Source: an uncultured Chloroflexia bacterium (lineage in GTDB: Bacteria; Chloroflexota; Limnocylindria; QHBO01). Taken from it: a stretch of 64,000 bases of DNA. The position numbers were made by a program, and so were the translations under genes. Below are positions 19,369 to 29,825 of the stretch, piece by piece (within the stretch, counting starts at the first letter, position 1; each line of letters starts with the position of its first letter). The stretch spans positions 104,144-168,143 of the forward strand of contig CAWEQC010000001.1 in the NCBI GenBank assembly GCA_963811145.1. Reading direction: 5' to 3'. The notes beneath the pieces are model-generated. The model worked only from the letters and a program-made list of their open reading frames with translations, ran no database searches and was not told the origin of the DNA.

Positions 19369-20168
19369 GCGGCAGGCTGGTTCTCCAGACCCTGCGCTGG
19401 CAGCGGGTGCGCCTCATCATCGTGGTGCTTGCCGGCTTCGGCTGGGGACTCCTCATCCCGGTCTTCTACGGCGCCTTCAGCGACATGATGCGCGAGCTCG
19501 CCAACTCCGGCGCCTTTCCGCGCGAGCTGCTGAACTTCGGGTCCGGCTCGCTCTTCACGCTGCCCGGCGCGATCACGCTGGGGACCCAGCACCCGCTGGC
19601 GATCGCGATGGTCGCCATCTTCGCCATCGGCTCATCCGCGACCGCCATCGCTGGCGAGCGGGCGCGCGGCACGCTCGAAGTGCTGCTCGCCCGACCGATC
19701 TCGCGGCTGACCCTGTACTTCAGCATCCTGGTCGCGATGCTCGTTGCCGTGCTCATCGTCATCGGCGCGATCATCGGCGGCATGGTCGTCGGTTCGACGA
19801 TCCAGGGGCTGACGGATGAGCTCGACCTTGGGCTGGTCCCGCTCGTCCTGCTCAACGGCTTCGGCCTGTGGGCCGCCTTCACGACCTTTGGGCTGGCCGC
19901 CTCGGTCTCGTTCGACCGGCCCGGCCCGGCCATCGGCCTGTCGCTCGCCTACCTGGTGATCAACTACTTCCTGGAGATCCTCGGGTCGCTGTGGGCCGAT
20001 GCCGCCTGGACGCAGAAGTACTCGCTCTTCCACCACTTCAACCCTGGCGCCATTCTCACCGGTGACGGGGACCTGCTCGACCTCGTGATCGTGTTCGTCG
20101 CGGCGCTCGTCCCGCTGATCTACGCGCTCATCGTCTTCCCCAGGCGGGACCTCGCGGCCCCCGCCTAG
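19365..20168 (+). CDS. ABC-2 type transporter permease
   Basis: GTG 19365 overlaps the ATPase stop (GTGA). 6 TM protein VSGRLVLQTLRWQRVRLIIVVLAGF... Confidence 0.75.
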   Translation: MSGRLVLQTLRWQRVRLIIVVLAGFGWGLLIPVFYGAFSDMMRELANSGAFPRELLNFGSGSLFTLPGAITLGTQHPLAIAMVAIFAIGSSATAIAGERARGTLEVLLARPISRLTLYFSILVAMLVAVLIVIGAIIGGMVVGSTIQGLTDELDLGLVPLVLLNGFGLWAAFTTFGLAASVSFDRPGPAIGLSLAYLVINYFLEILGSLWADAAWTQKYSLFHHFNPGAILTGDGDLLDLVIVFVAALVPLIYALIVFPRRDLAAPA

Positions 20169-22846
20169 TCGGTCGTTCCGAGGGCGTAGGCAACGGCCTC
20201 GTCGGCGGTCATCGAATCACCGGCCGCCCATGCGTCCGCCAGCGCCGGATCGGCCTTGAGCTCGCCGGGGAAGAAGCCCAGCACCTCGCGGTTCCACTGG
20301 TTGAGGCCCGTCCCGCTGGTGCGCTCGAGCTTCGCGACCGCCGCTGACAGGCGCGCCGCGCGGTCACGGTCGCCCTCGCGGAGGGCCAGCAGGGCCACGG
20401 CGTCCAGGACGAGGGTGTAGCCGCTGACGTCCTGCGCCTCTGCGAAGATCTCGAGCGCACGCAGCAGCCCGCGTCGTGCCTCGACAAGTTGCTCCGGTTT
20501 ACCGCGTGCAACGGCATGCTCGCTGAGCGCCGCGAGCCCGAGGGTGTATTCCACCCAGCCGACCATGAAGCGATCGTCGACCGCCTCGAGGGCGACAAGC
20601 GCCTCCTTGGCGTGTCGCACTGAGTCCTCCAGGCGTCCGGTCCCCCAGGCCACGTTCGACAGTGCCCACTCGCAGCGCCCGACGCCGGCATTGTCGCCGA
20701 CCTCCCGGAAGATGTCCTTTGCCTCGTTGACGTATTCCTGGGCGCGTTGGGCGTTGTCGTCCTTGAGCAGGCCGCGAATCGACCAGGTGAAGGAGATGCC
20801 GTAGAGCGCCTCCGCCAGTCCCCTTCGGTCGTTCAGCGCCCGGCGCGCCTCGATCTCCTGCTGGTAAAGGTCGCGAGCGTGATCTCCGTCCCCGAGCCAG
20901 TAGGCGACGCCGGCCGTGGCGTCGAGCACATCGGCGCGCAGGGCGGGATGGTCCCGACTCTGCGGCAGCGCGAGCGTCTGCTCGAGTCGCTCGAGGCCCT
21001 CCTGCAGGTAGCCGCGCATCTGCCAGAACCGCCACAGGGCGGATCCCAGCCGCATTGCCACGTCTGCCGCGGTCGTCTCGATTGCCCATGCCATGGCCGC
21101 GCGCAGGTTGTCGTGATCCTGCTCGACCCGGTCAAGCGTCAGGCCCTTGTCGGCCGCCATCACTTGCCCGGCCCAGCCTTCGGCAAGCTTCGCGAACAGC
21201 TCCGCGTGCCGCCTGCGCAGGCCGTCGCGGCTACCGCGAGCGGTGCTCTGCTCGAGTGCGAACTCGCGGATGGTTTCGAGCATCCCGAATCGCGGCTCGC
21301 CGCCGATTCCCTCCGACTGCCGGACGAGGCTCTTCTCGACCAGCGATCCGAGCGCGTCGAGCACGTCGCCCGTCACCTCGGCGCCACAGACGTCCTCGAT
21401 GGCCTCCAACCCGGCTCCGCCGACGAACACCGACAGGCAGGCGAACAGCGACCTGTCGGCCTCATCGAGCATGTCGTGGCTCCAGGCGATGGCCCCACGC
21501 AGCGTCTGCTGGCGTTCGGGAAGGTCGTGCGCGCCGCCGGCGAGCAGTCCGAGGCGGTTCTCGAGCCTGCTCAGCATCGACTGCGGCGTGAAGATCCGAA
21601 TCCGCGCCGCCGCCAGCTCGATGGCCAGCGGCAGCCCATCGAGGCGGACGCAGATCTCGGCCACCGCCGGTGCGTTGTCGTTGGTGACGTCGAAGTCCGG
21701 CTTCACCGATCGCGCTCGCTCGATGAACAGCGCCACCGACTCGAACTGCGACAGCTGTGTCAGCGGTGGGAGGTGCGCCGGATCCGGCAGCCCAAGTGGC
21801 GGAACCGGGTACTCCTGCTCACCCGAGACCCGGAGGACGCTCCGGCTGCTCGTCATGACCGCGAGGTTCTCGCACCCCAGCAGGAGCGCATTGACCGACG
21901 GCGCCGCCGCGGTCACCTGCTCGAAGTTGTCCAGCACGAGCAGCATGCGCCGCTCGCCGATGTGGTCGATCAAGCGCTCGACCGAGCTCCGCCCGGCGCG
22001 GTTGGGAAGGCCCAGCGCCTGGCCGATGGTGGCCGCCACGAGCTCCGGTTCGGTGATCGGCGCCAGCTCGACGAAGAAGACTCCGTCGGGGAACTGCTCC
22101 AGGGAGCGCCCCGCCACCTCCAGGCTGAGCCGCGTCTTGCCAGTCCCGCCCGGGCCGGTGAGGGTGAGGAGCCGGCTCTCGGCCAGGCGTGCGGAGATCT
22201 CCGCGATCTCTCGGGCGCGGCCGAGGAAGGTCGTCAACCGCGTCGGCAGGTTGTTCGGCACCACGTCGAGCGACGCGATCGGCGCGAAGTCGCTCTGCAG
22301 GTCGGGGGCGACGACCTGCCAGAGCCGCTCGGGTCGGTCGAGATCCTTGAGCCGATGGACTCCGAGGTCGCGAAGCTCGACACCCTCGGGAAGCGCCTCG
22401 GAAACGAGCGAGCGAGTGGTGTCCGACAGGAGGATCTGGCCGCCGCGTCCGACGCTCGCGATGCGGCTGGCACGATGCACGTGCAGGCCCACGTAGCCCT
22501 CCGTGCCGAAGCTCGCTTCACCGGTGTGCATGCCCATCCGGACGCGAACCTCGGCGTCGTCCGGCCACGGCTCGCGCGCCAGCGCGCGCTGTGCCGCCAG
22601 CGCGGCCGCGACAGCGCCGGGCGCCGTGGGGAAGGCCACGAAGAACGAATCGCCCTCGGTCCCGACCTCCGCACCCCCCTCGGCCGCAAAAGCCGTCCGC
22701 AGCAGCTCCTGGTGACGCGCGAGCATCGCGGACCAGCCCTCGCGGTCCGACTGGAGGAGCCTGGTCGACCCCTCGATGTCGGTGAACAGGAAGGTGACGG
22801 TACCGGTCAGCAGCTCGGGCATCTTCGGGCTGAGTGTGCGATGCAT
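20165..22846 (-). CDS. class III adenylate/guanylate cyclase fused to STAND/NB-ARC-like P-loop ATPase and TPR repeats
   Basis: Start set at MHRTLSPKMPELLTGTVTFLFTDIEGST. Cyclase motifs are GDSFFVAF and RVRMGMHTGE, with P-loop LTGPGGTGKTRLSLEVA. The long helical-repeat C-terminus has no HTH. Confidence 0.85.
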   Translation of the reverse strand: MHRTLSPKMPELLTGTVTFLFTDIEGSTRLLQSDREGWSAMLARHQELLRTAFAAEGGAEVGTEGDSFFVAFPTAPGAVAAALAAQRALAREPWPDDAEVRVRMGMHTGEASFGTEGYVGLHVHRASRIASVGRGGQILLSDTTRSLVSEALPEGVELRDLGVHRLKDLDRPERLWQVVAPDLQSDFAPIASLDVVPNNLPTRLTTFLGRAREIAEISARLAESRLLTLTGPGGTGKTRLSLEVAGRSLEQFPDGVFFVELAPITEPELVAATIGQALGLPNRAGRSSVERLIDHIGERRMLLVLDNFEQVTAAAPSVNALLLGCENLAVMTSSRSVLRVSGEQEYPVPPLGLPDPAHLPPLTQLSQFESVALFIERARSVKPDFDVTNDNAPAVAEICVRLDGLPLAIELAAARIRIFTPQSMLSRLENRLGLLAGGAHDLPERQQTLRGAIAWSHDMLDEADRSLFACLSVFVGGAGLEAIEDVCGAEVTGDVLDALGSLVEKSLVRQSEGIGGEPRFGMLETIREFALEQSTARGSRDGLRRRHAELFAKLAEGWAGQVMAADKGLTLDRVEQDHDNLRAAMAWAIETTAADVAMRLGSALWRFWQMRGYLQEGLERLEQTLALPQSRDHPALRADVLDATAGVAYWLGDGDHARDLYQQEIEARRALNDRRGLAEALYGISFTWSIRGLLKDDNAQRAQEYVNEAKDIFREVGDNAGVGRCEWALSNVAWGTGRLEDSVRHAKEALVALEAVDDRFMVGWVEYTLGLAALSEHAVARGKPEQLVEARRGLLRALEIFAEAQDVSGYTLVLDAVALLALREGDRDRAARLSAAVAKLERTSGTGLNQWNREVLGFFPGELKADPALADAWAAGDSMTADEAVAYALGTTD

Positions 22847-22891: not shown

Positions 22892-23815
22892 GTGCGCGCG
22901 CTGTTCCGCCTCCTCGCCCGGCGTCCGGTCCTGACTGCCGTCCTCGGCGCCCTGACGATTGCCGGCTCGGCCGTGCTTGTCTCGCTGGCCGACGTGCCGC
23001 CGGCTACCGCCGCCTTCTTCCGTTGTGCGTACGCCCTCCCACCGCTGGCGGTCCTCGCCTGGTTCGAGCGGCGGCGCTACGGTCCCAGGGCGGCGGGTCA
23101 GTCCCGCCTGGCGTGGATCGCCGGGGCGTTCTTCGCGGCGGATCTGATCCTGTGGCACCACGCCATCAGCCAGGTCGGAGCCGGCCTGGCCACGGTGCTC
23201 GGCAACACGCAGGTCGTGGTCGTGCCGCTCGCCGCCTGGCTCTTCCTCGGGGAGCGGCCGTCAGGGCGCGTGGCGGTCTCGGTCCCGCTCGTCCTGATGG
23301 GGGTCGTGCTGATCTCGGGAGTCATCGGCGCGGGCGCCTACGGCGCGAATCCGCTGCTCGGCGTCATCTTCGGGCTGGCCACCGGCCTCGCGTACGGCGG
23401 CTTCATCCTGATCCAGCGCGGTGCGAACGCCGACGTCCGTCGCCCCGCCGGGCCGCTGTTCGAGGCGACCGTCTCGGCTGCGGTGGTGACCCTTCTGGTT
23501 GGACTCCCGCTCGGGGAGATCGACCTCGTGCCGACCTGGCCCTCGCACCTGTGGCTCCTGATCCTGGCGCTCGGCGTCCACGTTGTCGGTTGGCTCCTGA
23601 TCAGCATCAGCCTGCCGCGGCTGCCGGCGGCGATCACCTCGGTGGTGCTCACCATCCAGCCGGTGGCATCGGTCTTCCTCGGAGTCTGGATCCTGTCGGA
23701 GGCGCCGTCGCCGCTGCAGCTGCTCGGCGTCGTCTTCATCCTGGCCGGACTGCTCCTGGCCACCGTCCGGATTCGCGTTCCGCGCGCGCGGCGGGTTCGG
23801 CTGGGCGCCGGATAG
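22892..23815 (+). CDS. DMT-superfamily (EamA) transporter
   Basis: 307 aa, 10 TM, two EamA-like halves. Divergent from the cyclase gene with a 45-bp spacer. Confidence 0.85.
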   Translation: MRALFRLLARRPVLTAVLGALTIAGSAVLVSLADVPPATAAFFRCAYALPPLAVLAWFERRRYGPRAAGQSRLAWIAGAFFAADLILWHHAISQVGAGLATVLGNTQVVVVPLAAWLFLGERPSGRVAVSVPLVLMGVVLISGVIGAGAYGANPLLGVIFGLATGLAYGGFILIQRGANADVRRPAGPLFEATVSAAVVTLLVGLPLGEIDLVPTWPSHLWLLILALGVHVVGWLLISISLPRLPAAITSVVLTIQPVASVFLGVWILSEAPSPLQLLGVVFILAGLLLATVRIRVPRARRVRLGAG

Positions 23816-23819
23816 GAGA

Positions 23820-25149
23820 TCAGGGAGCGTCGACCGGTAGGACAACGATGAAGCGGGTGCCCTCCGGTCCCGTCTCGACGTCGATCCTGCCCCCGTGCCG
23901 GATCACCACGTTGTGCGAGATGTGGAGGCCCAGCCCGGTGCCCTTGCCGGGCGGCTTGGTGGTGTAGAACGGCTCGAACAGCCGGTCCCTCACCTCGGCC
24001 GGAATGCCGGTGCCGGTGTCGCAGATCGACACGCGCACGCCGTCCCCGTCCGGGTCGCGCTCGGCCCGCAGCGTGAGGGTGCCGCCGCTCATCCATGGCG
24101 TCGATGGCGTTGTCGACCAGGTTCGTCCAGACCTGGTTCAGCTCGGAGCCATACACCTCGATCTCCGGCAGATCGTCGGCCAGCTCCTTCACCACCGTGA
24201 TCCCAGCCTCGTTGAGCCGATGGCGGAGGATGACGAGCGTCTGCTCGAGGCCGATGCGCACGTCGACGCGCTGACGAGGCGCCTGGTCCAGGTAGGCATA
24301 GCCCTTGACGGCGGTCACGATCTCGCTGATCCGATCGACCGACATGGTGAGCTCCTCCAGGAGCTGGTGCACGGCTGCCTGCGCCGCCAGCCATCTCACG
24401 ACTTCCGGCGGCTGGTCGCGCAGGAGGTCCGGCCTCCAGCCGGCGTCGATGAGCGCGGAAGCAGCATCGGGTCCGTCAGTCAGTCCGGCGACCTCGTCGA
24501 TCATGTCGGCTCGCTCCAGCGCCGAGCGCGGGGGCGCGGCATCGGGCGGCGGCTGCGGCGGCGATGCCGGTCGGGGCAATGCATCGAGGGCCGCCATCGC
24601 ATCACGGAGGGCGCGCGCGGAGCGGGCCGCGGCGGCGGCGGGATTGTTGAGCTCGTGTGCCACGCCGGCGACGAGCGTGCCGAGGGCGGCCAGCTTCTCG
24701 CGCTCGCGGAGCGTCGCCTCCATCGATCGGAGGCGCCCGACGGCGGTCCGAATGACGGACAGCGCCACGTCGGGCCCGGCGGTCAGCAGCTCGCGCATGG
24801 CGTCGATCGGGATGCGCAGGGCCTCACCCTCGGTCACCGCGCTGACGGACGCGAGGCGACGGCCTCCCCCGAGCGCCGCGATCTCTCCCTGGAGCGCTCC
24901 CGGGCCGACGCGTGACAGCGGAATCTCGGCCTTCCCGGACCGCTTGGTGACCTCGAACTCGCCATCAAGGATCACGTAGAGCGCGTCGGCCTCGTCGCCC
25001 TCGTCGATGAGCCGGTCGCCGGGCGCCAGGTCCACGATCTCGCCGCGCTCGATCAGCCTCCCCAGCCGCTCGTCGTCCAGCCCTTCGAAGAGAGGCGTCG
25101 CGCGCAGGCGCTCCGCCACGTCGGAGGTCGGGAGGTGCTGATGCGTCAC
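23820..25149 (-). pseudogene. sensor histidine kinase with N-terminal cyclic-nucleotide-binding domain; one frameshift in the ATPase domain
   Basis: GTG 25149 overlaps the upstream stop (GTGA). The cNMP domain is LFEGLDDERL...GEIAALGGGRRLASV and the H-box is VAHELNNP. N-box [10 protein letters not shown] is in one frame and [11 protein letters not shown]...DTGTGIP...GTGLGL in the +1 frame, with the junction near 24093. Confidence 0.8.
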
Positions 25150-26796
25150 AGCTCGGCCATGTACTCGTGGACGAGCTGCACCGCCATGGCGCCCTCCCCC
25201 ACCGCGCTGGCGATGCGCTTGATCGACCGATGGCGCACGTCGCCGGCGGCGAAGACGCCGGGAAGGCTGGACTCCAGCAGCCTCGGCTCGCGGTCGAGGT
25301 TCCAGCCGTGCCCTTCGGCGACGTCTGTCCCGGTCAGCACGAAGCCGCGGGCGTCGCAGGCGGCAACTCCCTCCAGCCACGCGGTCCGCGGCTGCTGGCC
25401 GATGAACACGAACACGGCGCTGAGGGGAAGGTCCAGCTCTCCATCCGGCGTGTCGAAGACGGCTCGTTCGAGGTGATCGGCGCCGTGCAGCTCGCGAATG
25501 GAGCACAGCGTGTGCAGCTCGACGTTCTCGATCTCGCCGATCTGCTCGATCAGGTAGGCGCTCATGGTCGCCTCGAGACCGGGGCCCCGCACCAGCAGGT
25601 GCACGCGCGCGGCATAACGCGACAGGTGGACCGCCGCCTGGCCGGCCGAGTTCCCACCGCCGATGACGCCCACCACGGCGTCGCGGTAGAGGACTGCCTC
25701 CGTCGTGGCCGCGCCGTAGTAGACGCCGGCCCCGGCCAGCTCCTTCGCGCCGGGAACGTCCAGCTGCCGATAGCTCACCCCGGTGGCGATCACGACCGCC
25801 TGGCAGGAGAGCTCGGTGCCGTCGTCGAGCACCACGGTGCGATACGGATCGCCACGCCGGATGGTCGAAGCCTCCTGCGACGAGACGATCTCGGTGCCGA
25901 AGCGCCGCGCCTGCGCGAGGGCACGGCGCGCCAGGTCGGCGCCGGTCAGGCCCGACGGGAAGCCGAGGTAGTTCTCGATACGGCTGGTGGTGCCGGCCTG
26001 CCCGCCCGGCGCCTCGCGCTCGATCAGCAGGGTCTTGAGGCCCTTCGCTCGAGCCGTAGACGGCGGCGGCGAGCCCGGCCGGCCCGGCTCCGACGATGAC
26101 GAGGTCGTAGAACGGGAGGGCCGCATGGGTGGAGAGCCCGACAGCCTCGGCCAGCTCCCGCACGGTCGGGTTGACGAGCACCCGTCCGTCGGGCAGGAGG
26201 ATGACCGGCTCGGACGGGTCAGCGGGAGCGTCGAGCGACTCAGCCAGGCGCCGGCCGTCGCCATCGTCATCGGCGTCCAGCCAGGTGTACGGCACCTGGT
26301 TGCGCGTCAGAAAGTCGCGGAGCTCGTGTCCTCGGGGAGCCCATCGGCCCGCCAGGAGGCGCAGTCCCTCGAAGGGCGGTCGGAATGCGGCGGTCCAGTC
26401 GGTGAGCAGGTCGTCGAGGACCGGGTACAGCCGCTCCTCCGGTGGGTCCCACGGCTTCAGCAGGTACTGGTCGAGGCGAATCTCGTTGATCGCCCGGATC
26501 GCGATGTCCGTGTCGGCGTAGGCGGTCAGCAGGACGCGCTTGGCATCGGGCTGGAGCGGAAGCGCCTCGGCGAGGAATTCGATCCCGGTCATCCCCGGCA
26601 TGCGCTGGTCGACCACGAAGAGGGCGATCGGATCGCCGCGCCTGGTCAGCTCGCGCACGATCTCGAGCGCCTCGGCACCCGAGCCGGCGGCGAGGATGCG
26701 GTAGTCGGAGCCGTACCGGGCGCGCAGGTCGCGCTCGACCGCCCGGAGGACCAGGGCGTCGTCGTCTACCGCCAGCATCGCAGGCTTTGCCGCCAT
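25146..26796 (-). pseudogene. response-regulator receiver domain fused to thioredoxin-reductase-like FAD/NAD(P) oxidoreductase (no CxxC); one frameshift
   Basis: REC domain (MLAVDDD..., FVVDQRMPGMTG, LLKPW) and a linker precede DLVIVGAGPAGLAAAVYGSSEG. After an extra base in the run at 26041-26043 the sequence continues LKTLLIE...VIGGGNSAGQAA...GVFAAGDV. The canonical CATC position reads YYGAATTEA. Confidence 0.8.
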
Positions 26797-26848
26797 TTGC
26801 GGCGAGTGTAGGGCCACCGCGCGCACTCGGACCGGCTACGCTCACCGA

Positions 26849-26995
26849 GTGCTGCGCACCATCATCATCGTCCTGCTGCTGCTGTGGCTCCTCGGCTTCC
26901 TGCTGAGGGCATTCGGCGGCCTGATCCACCTCCTGCTGATCGTGGTGCTTGTGATCGTCATCTATCGGCTCGCCACCGGTCGCCGCGTCGTCTAG
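26849..26995 (+). CDS. small hydrophobic membrane protein (48 aa, lmo0937-like)
   Basis: GTG..TAG ORF below the ORF-track cutoff: VLRTIIIVLLLLWLLGFLLRAFGGLIHLLLIVVLVIVIYRLATGRRVV. The pattern resembles the widespread tiny two-helix family, from memory. High GC3. Confidence 0.6.
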   Translation: MLRTIIIVLLLLWLLGFLLRAFGGLIHLLLIVVLVIVIYRLATGRRVV

Positions 26996-26999
26996 GCCG

Positions 27000-28159
27000 A
27001 TGCTCCTGAGCGGCACCGGCCGCCTGGCGCCGGCAGGTCTGTCGCCTTGGGCGATGCTGGTGCGCGACGGGCGCGTCGCGTGGATCGGCTCGCCGGCCGA
27101 TGCGCCGAAGGCCGAGCGGATCGACCTCGGGTCGGCACTGGTGACCCCCGGGCTGGTCGACAGCCACACCCACCCCGTCTTCGCCGGGGACCGATCCGAC
27201 GAGGCGGCTGCCCGCCTGGAGGGCGCGCCCTATACCGATGGCGGCATCCTGCGCACCGTCCGCGCCACGCGCGAGGCGGATGACGCGACGCTCGAAGGGC
27301 TCGTCGAGATGCGCCTGCGCGCTGCGCTGGCCGCAGGAACCACGACGGTCGAATGCAAGTCCGGCTACGGCCTCTCGCTCGACGAGGAGCTCCGTCACCT
27401 GCGGATCATCGGCCGGGTGGCGGATCGTCTCCCGATCAGGGTGGTCCGCACCTTCCTCGGCGCGCACGCGGTGCCGCCGGACGCCGCCTCGATGGACGAC
27501 TACGCGGCCGAGGTCGCGGACGTGATGATCCCGGCCGTCGCGCGCGAGGGCCTCGCCGAGTTCGTCGACGTCTTCGTTGACGAGGGCTTCTTCGACCTGG
27601 TCGCCGCCGAGCGCATCGGTCGGGCCGCATCCGCGGCAGGCCTCGGGCTGCGGCTCCACGCGGAGCAGCTGCGGCGGACCGGCGCGGCGGAGCTCGGTGT
27701 CCGGCTCGGCGCCGCCTCGGTCGACCACCTCGAGCAGCTCGACGCCGATGGCGTGAAGGCGCTGGCGGCGTCGGACACGGTCGCGACCCTGCTCCCCGCT
27801 CCGGCGATCGTGCTCCGCGATCGCCTGCCGCCGGCCCGCGCGCTCATGGACAGCGGCGCCGGGTCGCCCTCGCCAGCGACGCGAACGCGGGCACCTTCGG
27901 TGGCTTCGGAGCCATGCCGCTGGTGATCGGCCTCGGCGCGACGCTGCTCGGGCTGTCGGTCGCCGAGGCGCTCAACGCATCGACCGCGGGAGGCGCGGCC
28001 GCGCTACGACGCGACGACCTCGGGACGCTGCGACCCGGTGCGGCCGCCGATCTCGTCGCGTGGGACGCGGAGCACGAAGGCGCCTTCGCCCTGCGGCTCG
28101 GATCGGTCAGGCCGTCCCGGGTCTGGATCGCGGGCCAGGAGATCGCCCTCAGCGGTTGA
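27000..28159 (+). pseudogene. hutI: imidazolonepropionase-like amidohydrolase; one frameshift (1-nt deletion)
   Basis: DSHTHPVFAG, VECKSGYGL, FLGAHAVP and HAEQL..DHLE are present. The frame breaks at about 27860 (ALMDSGA | RVALASDANAGTFGGFGAMPLVIG...). No hutH/hutU nearby, so the exact specificity is uncertain. Confidence 0.7.
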
Positions 28160-28389
28160 GGCGGTTCCGCAGTGCCTCGACGAGTCGCTCGGCGTGCGCC
28201 GGTGTCGTCACGCGCCAGCTCCTGGAAGAGCTGCTTCGCCTCTCCATCGGCGTCCTCTTCGTACTTCGCGTACGCCTCGATCGCCTCGCACTTGCTGGTG
28301 AGCGCCTGGAGCAGGTCGTAGAGCTGGTCGTCGATCGGCGACCGGATGTCGCTGCCGGACCGATAGTGGTGGCTGGTCTGAACGGTCAT
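28149..28389 (-). pseudogene. small helical protein (about 79 aa), hypothetical; one frameshift
   Basis: MTVQTSHHYRSGSDIRSPIDDQLYDLLQALTSKCEAIEAYAKYEEDADGEAKQLFQELARDDT continues as AHAERLVEALRNRLNR* after an extra base near 28200. The uncorrected ORF runs antisense through hutI. Confidence 0.5.
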
Positions 28390-28472
28390 GTTGAAATCTT
28401 CCCTTGCGTGTGATTTGCTGATCGAGACAGACGCAGGTCGCGTGCCAGCCGGCGCCGCCTATCATCCCGGAC

Positions 28473-29825
28473 ATGGAACGATTCGACCTGGTCGTCATCG
28501 GTGCGGGCGTCGCCGGCGAAGCTGCAACGCACTACGCCCGCTCGAAGGGAGCCTCGGTCGCCGTCATCGACCGCGCGCTGTTCGGCGGATCGTGCCCGTT
28601 CTGGGCGTGCATGCCCTCGAAGGCGCTCCTCCATGCCGCCGCGGTCCATCATGCCGGCGGCGACTATCCGTGGAAGAAGGCCTCCGACTTCCGTGACTAC
28701 ATGATCAACCGCACGAAGACCGACGTTCCCGACGACTCGGGGCACGTGAAGTCGCTCGAGGATGCGGGCGCCACCGTCATTCGCGGGTCCGCGACCCTGG
28801 CGGGGCCGGGGCGCGTCGACATCGATGGGAGGGAGCTCGAGGCAGGTGCCATCATCCTCGCCATCGGCTCGGTGAGCCGCGTTCCTGACCTTCCCGGGCC
28901 TCGCCGAAGCGCACCCATGGACCAACGTCCAGGGCACCTCCACCCGCGAGCTGCCGCGCTCGCTGGCCATCCTCGGCGCGGGGCCGACCGGGGTCGAGCT
29001 TGCCCAGGTCTACGCGCGATACGACGTGCCGGTCACGTTGATCCATCCCCGCGACCGCGTGCACGACAAGGAGCACCGTCTGCTCGTCGGAGTTCCTGGG
29101 CGCCTCGCTCGAGCGCGATGGCGTGACGCTGCGGCTCAATTCGCGGGCGGCCAGCGTTCGCCCCGGGGAGGGCGAGGACGGCGCGCACGTCATCGAGATC
29201 GAGGATGGCCCGCCGGTCGAAGGGCACGAGATCCTGCTCGCCATCGGTCGTGACCTGCCGCTCGACGGGCTCGGCCTCGAGACCATCGGCGTGACGCCAA
29301 CGGACGGGAAGCTGTCGCCGGATGACCGCCTCCGCATCGCGGAGAACGTCTATGCCGTGGGCGACGCCGGCGGCCCCGAGCTGCACACCCACCTCGGGCA
29401 CTACACGGGGGAGGCGGCGGCGCGCATCGCCCTCGGCGACGACGCCTACCGGCCGGCTCTTCGACGCGATCCCGCGCGCGACGTACACCGACCCCGAAAC
29501 GGCCTCGGTCGGCCTGCTGCTGGAGCAGGCAAGGGAGCGCGGCATCGACGCGGTCGAGTTCACGGAGCCGATCGGCACGTCGGCCAAGGGATACACGGCG
29601 GAGGCCGACGGCCACTGCACGATCGTGGTCGACCGCGCGAAACGCCAGCTGATTGGCGCCTTCATGGCCGGACCGGCGGTCAGCGAGACGATCCACGAGT
29701 GCGTCCTTGCCATCAGAGCGGGCATTTCGCTCGCCACGCTGGCCGACACCATCCACGCCTTCCCGACCGTCGCTCGCGTCCTCGGTACGGCGCTGATCGC
29801 CGCGGATCGCGAGCTCGGGGCGTAG
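28473..29825 (+). pseudogene. class-I pyridine nucleotide-disulfide oxidoreductase (dihydrolipoamide dehydrogenase / mercuric reductase-like); three frameshifts
   Basis: DLVVIGAGVAGEAA, redox motif GGSCPFWACMPSK, AILGAGPTGVELAQ, VYAVGDAGG, dimerisation domain ATYTDPETASVGL. The frame changes near 28898, 29086 and 29455, each consistent with a 1-nt insertion. Confidence 0.8.

Follow-up and report, generated by a model that had tools for sequence, protein, structure and literature searches.

Which activity, if any, is controlled by a response regulator whose output module resembles a thioredoxin reductase (TrxR) and lacks the redox-active cysteines of that enzyme? This question is raised by a locus within a stretch of 64,000 nucleotides (the window) from an uncultured Chloroflexia bacterium, contig CAWEQC010000001.1, in which a response-regulator gene is followed on the minus strand by the gene of a soluble histidine kinase. 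The analysis led to the reading that the locus encodes a TrxB-type response regulator and a translationally coupled kinase, that the regulator carries a signal-gated, thiol-independent NAD(P)H flavoenzyme as its output, and that the frameshift splitting its gene is an assembly indel. A probability of roughly 0.6 is given to this reading. The encoded protein is an ordinary member of a widespread and already catalogued, though little-studied, bacterial signalling family. The locus consists of the following parts.

25146..26796, minus strand: response-regulator gene, 549 codons plus stop if one surplus base is skipped, encoding a receiver (REC), a glutaredoxin (Grx)-like domain and a TrxR-like module; 92 % identity to intact orthologues of 548 amino acids (aa)
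26440..26775, minus strand: REC domain, residues 8-119 (Pfam PF00072, Response_reg, E 2.8e-15)
26119..26367, minus strand: Cys-less glutaredoxin-fold domain, with W-A-P-R-G in place of the Grx C-P-x-C
25149..26115, minus strand: TrxR-like FAD/NAD(P)H module with GxGxxG, GGGNSAGQAA, MSxYL and GDVR (PF07992, Pyr_redox_2, E 5e-27)
25695..25733, minus strand: loop equivalent to TrxR C-A-T-C-D, reading GAGVYYGAATTEA, in which AATT (25701-25712) replaces CxxC
26040..26046, minus strand: frameshift site, where a surplus G/C in GAAGGGCCTC breaks the gene, giving frames A and B
23820..25149, minus strand: cognate soluble histidine kinase gene, with a CAP/cyclic nucleotide (cNMP)-binding domain (PF00027, E 3e-18), a HELNNP H-box and HATPase_c (PF02518, E 6e-21)

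The regulator gene starts with ATG at 26796 and stops with TGA at 25148-25146. Frame A (26796-26044) encodes 251 residues, comprising the receiver, a domain of ~85 residues and the beginning of a Rossmann fold (..PFYDLVIVGAGPAGLAAAVYGSSE), and frame B (26042-25149) the other 298 residues of the TrxR-like module. Searches were performed with read-through residues 1-493, up to which reading GAAG as E is correct, or with an intact orthologue.

A thioredoxin reductase fold without its dithiol

A reading of the letters alone (the sequence-only reading) had described the C-terminal part as a TrxR-like flavoprotein with two dinucleotide folds that had lost the redox-active CxxC. The motifs VIVGAGPAGLAAAVYG, VIGGGNSAGQAA, GVFAAGDV and GAGVYYGAATTEAVLY were all found in the regulator protein, and the matches to PF07992 and NCBIfam TIGR01292 (thioredoxin-disulfide reductase) agree with its view of the output, which is formed by a TrxR-derived flavoprotein module rather than by a DNA-binding domain. 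The module shares the two-Rossmann FAD/NAD(P)H fold and the GxGxxG, GGGxxA and GD motifs with low-Mr TrxR (TrxB; 7aaw, 1tde, 5mh4). Both dinucleotide-binding motifs of that family, GxGxxG for FAD and GxGxxA for NAD(P)H, are retained as VGAGPAG and GGGNSA. However, where low-Mr TrxRs (TIGR01292, EC 1.8.1.9) carry CxxC (CATC), the regulator has AATT. In alignments to the solved structures 7aaw, 4gcm and 1tdf the second Cys of CxxC corresponds to the second Thr of AATT and Asp139 to Glu, while the residue opposite the first Cys varies with the structure between Ala and Gly. The whole regulator protein contains three Cys residues and not a single CxxC. A displaced and overlooked CxxC, which the sequence-only reading had named as the finding that would overturn its claim, was rejected, as none of the three Cys lies within such a motif. 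The CxxC is thus truly absent, and a classical thioredoxin reductase is excluded, as had been proposed.

The module deviates from low-Mr TrxR in two further respects. The HRRxxxR motif for the 2'-phosphate of NADPH is replaced by VRGPGLE (VRGxxxE), in which only the first Arg is kept (R402 in the numbering of orthologue P0009). Furthermore, TIGR01292 matched with 196.8 bits (E 3.5e-58) against a curated cutoff of 343.45; the query was a fragment lacking the first ~25 residues, which cannot account for the score gap. The genome does encode a genuine TrxB on another contig:

G000:C3:27950-28828 (locus L003, 1438-2505), minus strand: TrxB that keeps CATC and VRRGEFR

Since the real TrxB is encoded elsewhere, the REC-fused protein is not the housekeeping enzyme. 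NCBIfam models of the AhpF type also matched (TIGR03140, E 3e-39), and AhpF resembles the regulator in carrying a thioredoxin (Trx)-fold domain ahead of a TrxR-like module. AhpF, however, combines a pair of Trx folds with a pair of CxxC centres. The window protein has one Grx-like fold and no redox cysteine, and neither CxxC centre was found in it.

An AlphaFold2 (AF2) model of the 409-residue Grx-like plus TrxR-like core of an orthologue, computed from a deep alignment, reached a pLDDT of 96.7 and a pTM of 0.93. Foldseek returned TrxRs as top matches, the best superpositions being with 5mh4, 3r9u and 3cty in the flavin-reducing conformation (TMt 0.92-0.94, rmsd 2.2 A); the superposition on AhpF comprised 429 aligned columns and included the N-terminal Trx fold. 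A full-length AF2 model with 21 close sequences had a pLDDT of 66 and a disordered CxxC-equivalent loop, and no inter-domain conclusions were drawn from it.

The sequence-only reading had suggested an activity like that of ferredoxin/flavodoxin-NADP reductases, and a phosphorylation-gated ferredoxin/flavodoxin-NAD(P)+ reductase (FNR) of the TrxR-like kind (TRLF, with YumC, 3lzw and 3ab1) indeed shares the lack of a CxxC. Sequence matches in the PDB to such FNRs (3lzw, 5xhu, 3ab1) were found at E values of ~1e-11 to 1e-13, but TrxR (E 4e-47 in the PDB; TIGR01292 as given above) and AhpF are far nearer. The extra C-terminal segment of TRLF FNRs caps the flavin. Query residues 228-545 align to residues 7-314 of the 332-residue 3lzw, and the protein ends where TrxR ends, so this extension is absent. 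The Grx-like domain, furthermore, has no counterpart in FNRs. An FNR-type activity is therefore not favoured and appears improbable.

Loss of cysteines throughout the family

The sequence-only reading had presented the loss of the cysteines as a feature of this protein. It proved to be a property of a large family, spread over many phyla. No CxxC occurs in 120 close homologues; every one of them has G[AR]GVYYGAATTE or a sequence differing little from it. The 138 family members that were aligned, 41-58 % identical to the query apart from a few closer sequences, have no Cys at either CxxC position, and their loop follows the consensus G-x-G-V-[YF]-Y-[GA]-A-[AT]-x-[TS]-E-A. Conservation among these members is no lower than 90 % for GxGxxG, GGGNSAGQAA, R402, M410-S411-x-Y413-L414 and GDVR. 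About one third of them have a Cys four residues past the loop Glu, a position occupied by Tyr in the window protein. This distribution indicates that the cysteine loss is family-wide and not local.

The region between the receiver and the TrxR-like module, previously taken for a linker of about 100 residues, is a folded glutaredoxin-like domain. TIGR02200 (mycoredoxin) matched residues 150-219 with a score below its cutoff (E 1e-5), and AF2 gave the first 88 residues of the core the beta-alpha-beta-alpha-beta-beta-alpha order of a glutaredoxin with pLDDT above 95. Glutaredoxins and mycoredoxins have CxxC or CxxS on this fold; here the fold is present and the active site is not. Column statistics over the family gave W-[S/D/A]-P-R-[T/S] at the position of C-P-x-C, with W-S-P-R-T/S as consensus. 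The Cys-less Grx-fold domain thus belongs to the conserved core of the family, and both dithiol centres of a Grx plus TrxR (AhpF-like) ancestor have been lost.

An exhaustive search with the Grx-like plus TrxR-like core of intact orthologue P0125, at E<1e-30, yielded 3412 clusters. Of the representative clusters, the 150 nearest included 62 with a REC-Grx-TrxR-like architecture, 53 with a CAP/cNMP-like domain in place of REC and 22 consisting of Grx and TrxR-like domains alone. In a tree of the TrxR-like core (FastTree, local supports only) REC and CAP-like forms are separated by two label changes only, and hence form essentially two clades. Such interchangeable N-terminal signal domains would fit a core that acts as a regulated effector. 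The family is present in at least 597 GTDB species representatives (597 of the 600 candidate stretches listed encode a relative). For the study of gene neighbourhoods 80 loci were kept, from Chloroflexota, Cyanobacteria, Acidobacteriota, Gemmatimonadota, Bacteroidota, Actinomycetota, Planctomycetota and Burkholderiales.

RefSeq labels for the relatives include "FAD-dependent oxidoreductase". CAP-like-Grx-TrxR-like proteins without CxxC were also observed on the Cupriavidus metallidurans CH34 chromid (L106, 2425-4206) and the Ralstonia solanacearum megaplasmid (L107, 2024-3676), and such Cupriavidus and Ralstonia proteins are annotated as 'thioredoxin reductase' or 'FAD-dependent oxidoreductase'.

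The receiver and its partner kinase

The N-terminal domain had been recognized as a receiver from DDD, FVVDQRMPG and LLKPW, and the PF00072 match agrees with this. The acidic residues D11, D12 and D13, the phospho-acceptor D63, T91 and K114-P115 are invariant in 21 orthologues. The regulator thus combines a receiver that has the acidic pocket, acceptor Asp, Thr and Lys with a C-terminal TrxB/Pyr_redox_2 module on the same polypeptide, encoded by a single open reading frame (ORF) in orthologues and split by one base here, and has a cognate histidine kinase gene adjacent to it. The kinase GTG start overlaps the regulator TGA (GTGA), and the same overlap of 4 nucleotides between the two genes was found on a Deinococcus plasmid. 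In the main reading the two genes would be co-transcribed and translationally coupled. The kinase gene of the window itself contains a frame switch near 24083-24094 that puts HATPase_c in another frame; its orthologues are intact, with open-frame lengths of 445-511 aa.

Clustering of neighbouring ORFs over the 80 loci revealed exactly one conserved neighbour, a protein of ~470 aa encoded adjacent to the regulator on the same strand in 63 loci. Kinase-type neighbours carry a CAP/cNMP-like domain in 62 of 65 cases and the HELNNP H-box in 56, and the kinase-paired loci span Cyanobacteria, Acidobacteriota, Bacteroidota, Actinomycetota, Chloroflexota and Gemmatimonadota. Among 50 aligned family kinases the canonical phosphate-binding cassette G-E-x-A...R-x-A was found in the window kinase (GEIAAL-GGGRR-LASV) and at three other Chloroflexota loci, while the cassette Arg is missing in most kinases of Acidobacteriota, Bacteroidota, cyanobacteria and actinobacteria (loci L024-L103). 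In Acidobacteriota and Bacteroidota kinases the cassette reads, for example, G-x-L-P-F-S-R-M. Because the phosphate-binding Arg is absent from the CAP-like domain in most other phyla, a cyclic nucleotide is not the general ligand. These differences suggest that the ligands of the kinase sensor vary between lineages; sensing of a cyclic nucleotide is plausible for the Chloroflexota lineage of the window and doubtful as a property of the family.

A putative source of such a ligand is encoded ~1 kb from the kinase gene:

20165..22846, minus strand: class III nucleotide cyclase-STAND ATPase-TPR gene (Pfam PF00211, E 2e-11, plus AAA/NB-ARC/TPR)

This gene is syntenic in relatives of the same genus, and the cyclase could possibly supply cyclic nucleotide locally. 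It was rejected as a conserved partner beyond the genus, as it is no conserved neighbour across the 80 loci.

Comparison with known systems

The combination of REC with a TrxB-like domain has been listed before, in a census of 2018 (Galperin et al., PMC5847659) and in PMC9739842. P2CS/P2RP distinguishes a "TrxB" type of response regulator, with SCO7297/SCO7298 as an example (PMC9739842), and one TrxB-type regulator was counted in a cyanobacterial census (PMC9953108). Polysulfide and acid shock both induce expression of sco7298 ("trxB3"; PMC9952706; PMC2631018), a gene that is grouped here by its TrxB class label. TrxB-type regulators have the same REC plus TrxB-like C-terminus and the same order of regulator gene followed by kinase gene, and the window gene falls in this class. 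The censuses report architecture only; nothing is said in them of the lack of CxxC, the Cys-less Grx fold or the CAP/cNMP sensor of the kinase. A literature search on REC-TrxB and cNMP plus TrxR fusions returned nothing functional beyond the papers cited here.

Enzyme data come from ATII-TrxR, a protein of 552 aa found in the Atlantis II brine pool, in which a cNMP domain covers residues 13-146 and TrxB residues 234-522 (Badiea et al. 2019, PMC6544261). The native enzyme contains 1.87 FAD, has Km values of 5.2 uM for NADPH and 4.2 uM for NADH, and reduces 5,5'-dithiobis(2-nitrobenzoic acid) (DTNB) at 5.6 s-1; thioredoxin-dependent reduction of insulin was also reported, read as NADPH consumption only (PMC6544261). 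In that paper the enzyme was regarded as an ordinary high-Mr TrxR, and the relatives considered included a Ralstonia sequence (PMC6544261). Such proteins are named 'cyclic nucleotide-binding domain-containing thioredoxin-disulfide reductase' in RefSeq. The reported Cys206, Cys223, Cys376 and Cys467 of ATII-TrxR all coincide with Cys residues of the 550-aa R. solanacearum megaplasmid protein (206, 223, 314, 376, 467). CxxC is missing from this Ralstonia protein, which has GFGVSYWASPIE, GGGNSAGQAI and MSRYL and shares 43 % identity with the core. ATII-TrxR is therefore very likely a member of the cNMP-fused sister clade, to judge from these positions. It would share the Grx-like plus CxxC-less TrxR-like core with the window protein, but has a CAP/cNMP-like domain instead of REC at its N-terminus, which places it in the second of the two clades in the core tree. 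Its use of both NADH and NADPH agrees with the degraded HRRxxxR motif of the window protein. The closest relative of ATII-TrxR was reported to be WP_011516654.1, a C. metallidurans paralogue (PMC6544261). C. metallidurans has at least two paralogues, and in the one on the chromid, WP_011519316.1, the Cys positions do not match those of ATII-TrxR.

Proposed mechanism

It is proposed that the kinase binds a small ligand, plausibly a cyclic nucleotide in the Chloroflexota lineage, autophosphorylates at the histidine of HELNNP and passes the phosphate to Asp63 of the receiver. The receiver would then gate the fused Cys-less Grx-fold and TrxR-fold FAD/NAD(P)H module, which would oxidise NADH or NADPH at its flavin and hand the electrons directly to an acceptor. 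As both former dithiol centres are gone (the SPxT-type and AATT sites), electrons cannot be transferred by disulfide exchange. The domain identities, the retained cofactor motifs, the absence of the cysteines throughout the family and the conserved pairing with the kinase are direct findings. FAD binding and NAD(P)H turnover in the window family are inferred from the report on the sister-clade enzyme, and the gating by phosphorylation and the nature of the ligand are inferred as well. The module probably acts as a signal-gated NAD(P)H flavoenzyme rather than as a thioredoxin reductase.

The main rival is that the Grx-like plus TrxR-like module is a pseudoenzyme, a non-catalytic sensor or scaffold that binds FAD and/or NAD(P)H, reads the redox state and signals by a TrxR-type domain rotation and protein contacts. 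The loss of both catalytic dithiol centres throughout the family would be expected of such a protein, AF2 predicts a single TrxR-like conformation (flavin-reducing), and apart from the kinase no conserved neighbouring gene hints at a substrate. However, cofactor and family motifs (GNSAGQAA, MSxYL, YY..E) are conserved at levels typical of enzymes, the module stands in the place of an output domain, following REC or CAP-like domains, and turnover of NAD(P)H has been reported for the sister-clade protein (PMC6544261). A redox sensor of this kind is considered rather unlikely, though less so than an FNR.

Several points weigh against the reading of the locus as a signal-gated flavoenzyme. All available enzyme data are from the sister clade, and the link to ATII-TrxR is based on Cys positions and domain layout, not on the ATII-TrxR sequence. 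The thioredoxin-dependent insulin reduction of ATII-TrxR is hard to square with an enzyme lacking CxxC (PMC6544261). The window protein does not keep the Cys residues of ATII-TrxR and has Tyr at the equivalent of residue 376. Furthermore, a cyclic nucleotide may not be the ligand of the window kinase, and on the assembly evidence (see below) there is a small chance that the gene is a real pseudogene.

A more far-reaching version of the flavoenzyme reading is put forward only tentatively: the family might be a distinct class of flavoenzymes, switched on by phosphorylation (REC) or by a ligand (CAP-like), with an acceptor other than a protein disulfide, such as O2, a quinone, a metal chelate or a sulfur species, and in the Chloroflexota lineage of the window the signal might run from cyclase via cAMP and kinase to the receiver and end at this enzyme. 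If true, this would be a widespread and unrecognised link between second-messenger signalling and the redox state of the cell.

The window protein is mislabelled by database names such as "thioredoxin reductase (NADPH)". What is conserved is a unit of Cys-less Grx-fold and TrxR-fold domains behind interchangeable REC or CAP-like inputs, with a canonical cyclic-nucleotide cassette in the partner kinase of some lineages only, that of the window included. The "novel TrxR" of the brine pool very probably belongs to the sister clade; if so, FAD and NADPH/NADH kinetic data for the family have already been published, under the wrong mechanism. Since the family is so widely distributed among species representatives and occurs in tractable Streptomyces, Nostoc, Deinococcus, Ralstonia and Cupriavidus, its function can be tested directly.

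Origin of the frameshift

The sequence-only reading had located a frameshift at the G-run at 26041-26043. The frame junction is indeed a single surplus base in GAA-G-GGC-CTC, with CCC at 26041-26043 on the plus strand, and all 12 aligned orthologous loci have GAG GGN CTN AAG at this site, without that base. The 120 nearest database proteins, from metagenome bins of Chloroflexota ("Ca. Limnocylindria"), are 76-92 % identical, nearly all 548-549 aa long and all unbroken. Among 24 genomes of the same genus 16 have the regulator gene as one full-length open frame, and the intact copies are 74-99 % identical; split copies occur only in assemblies with few contigs and low completeness (G003, G014). 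The source genome is itself a metagenome-assembled genome (MAG) of 2.69 Mb in 5 contigs with an estimated completeness of 86 %.

Frame switches were searched for by tblastn of ORFs from five relatives against the window and were counted if supported by at least two relatives. At least six well-supported switches were found in four adjacent genes, namely the regulator and kinase genes and the two genes upstream on the opposite strand, and none of the switches is present in the relatives:

26041-48, minus strand: frame switch in the regulator gene, tblastn against relatives
24083-94, minus strand: frame switch in the kinase gene, tblastn against relatives
~27860, plus strand: one frame switch in gene 26967-28156, against three or four relatives
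~28891-28934, 29079-29084 and 29457-29473, plus strand: three frame switches in gene 28302-29822, against three or four relatives

A genuine frameshift would leave a pseudogene, or a product made up of REC, the Grx-like domain, ~25 FAD-domain residues and a tail read out of frame, close to the truncated REC-linker protein that the sequence-only reading had allowed for. The surplus base is present in the assembly as given, and the run of only 2-3 bases is no classic long homopolymer. However, frame A would continue for 1165 codons through the kinase gene without a stop, which does not give a credible product, the gene is intact in relatives of the genus, the other split copies are confined to MAGs of few contigs and low completeness, and the six indels hit four neighbouring genes, which favours an assembly indel over decay of a single gene. 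Judged from the assembly and the relatives rather than from reads, the surplus base at 26041-26043 is most likely an assembly indel, and a genuine frameshift is improbable. Programmed frameshifting was rejected, as orthologues are encoded in a single frame.

Weaker frame-switch signals, each from a single relative, were seen at ~30850 and ~34782. The spread of the switches indicates that indel errors occur throughout the assembly, and every interpretation of this genome that is built on ORFs will be affected. With a G+C content of 69.5 %, frame A of the regulator is open over both genes (23338-26835, minus strand), and an ORF caller could call a spurious giant protein there.

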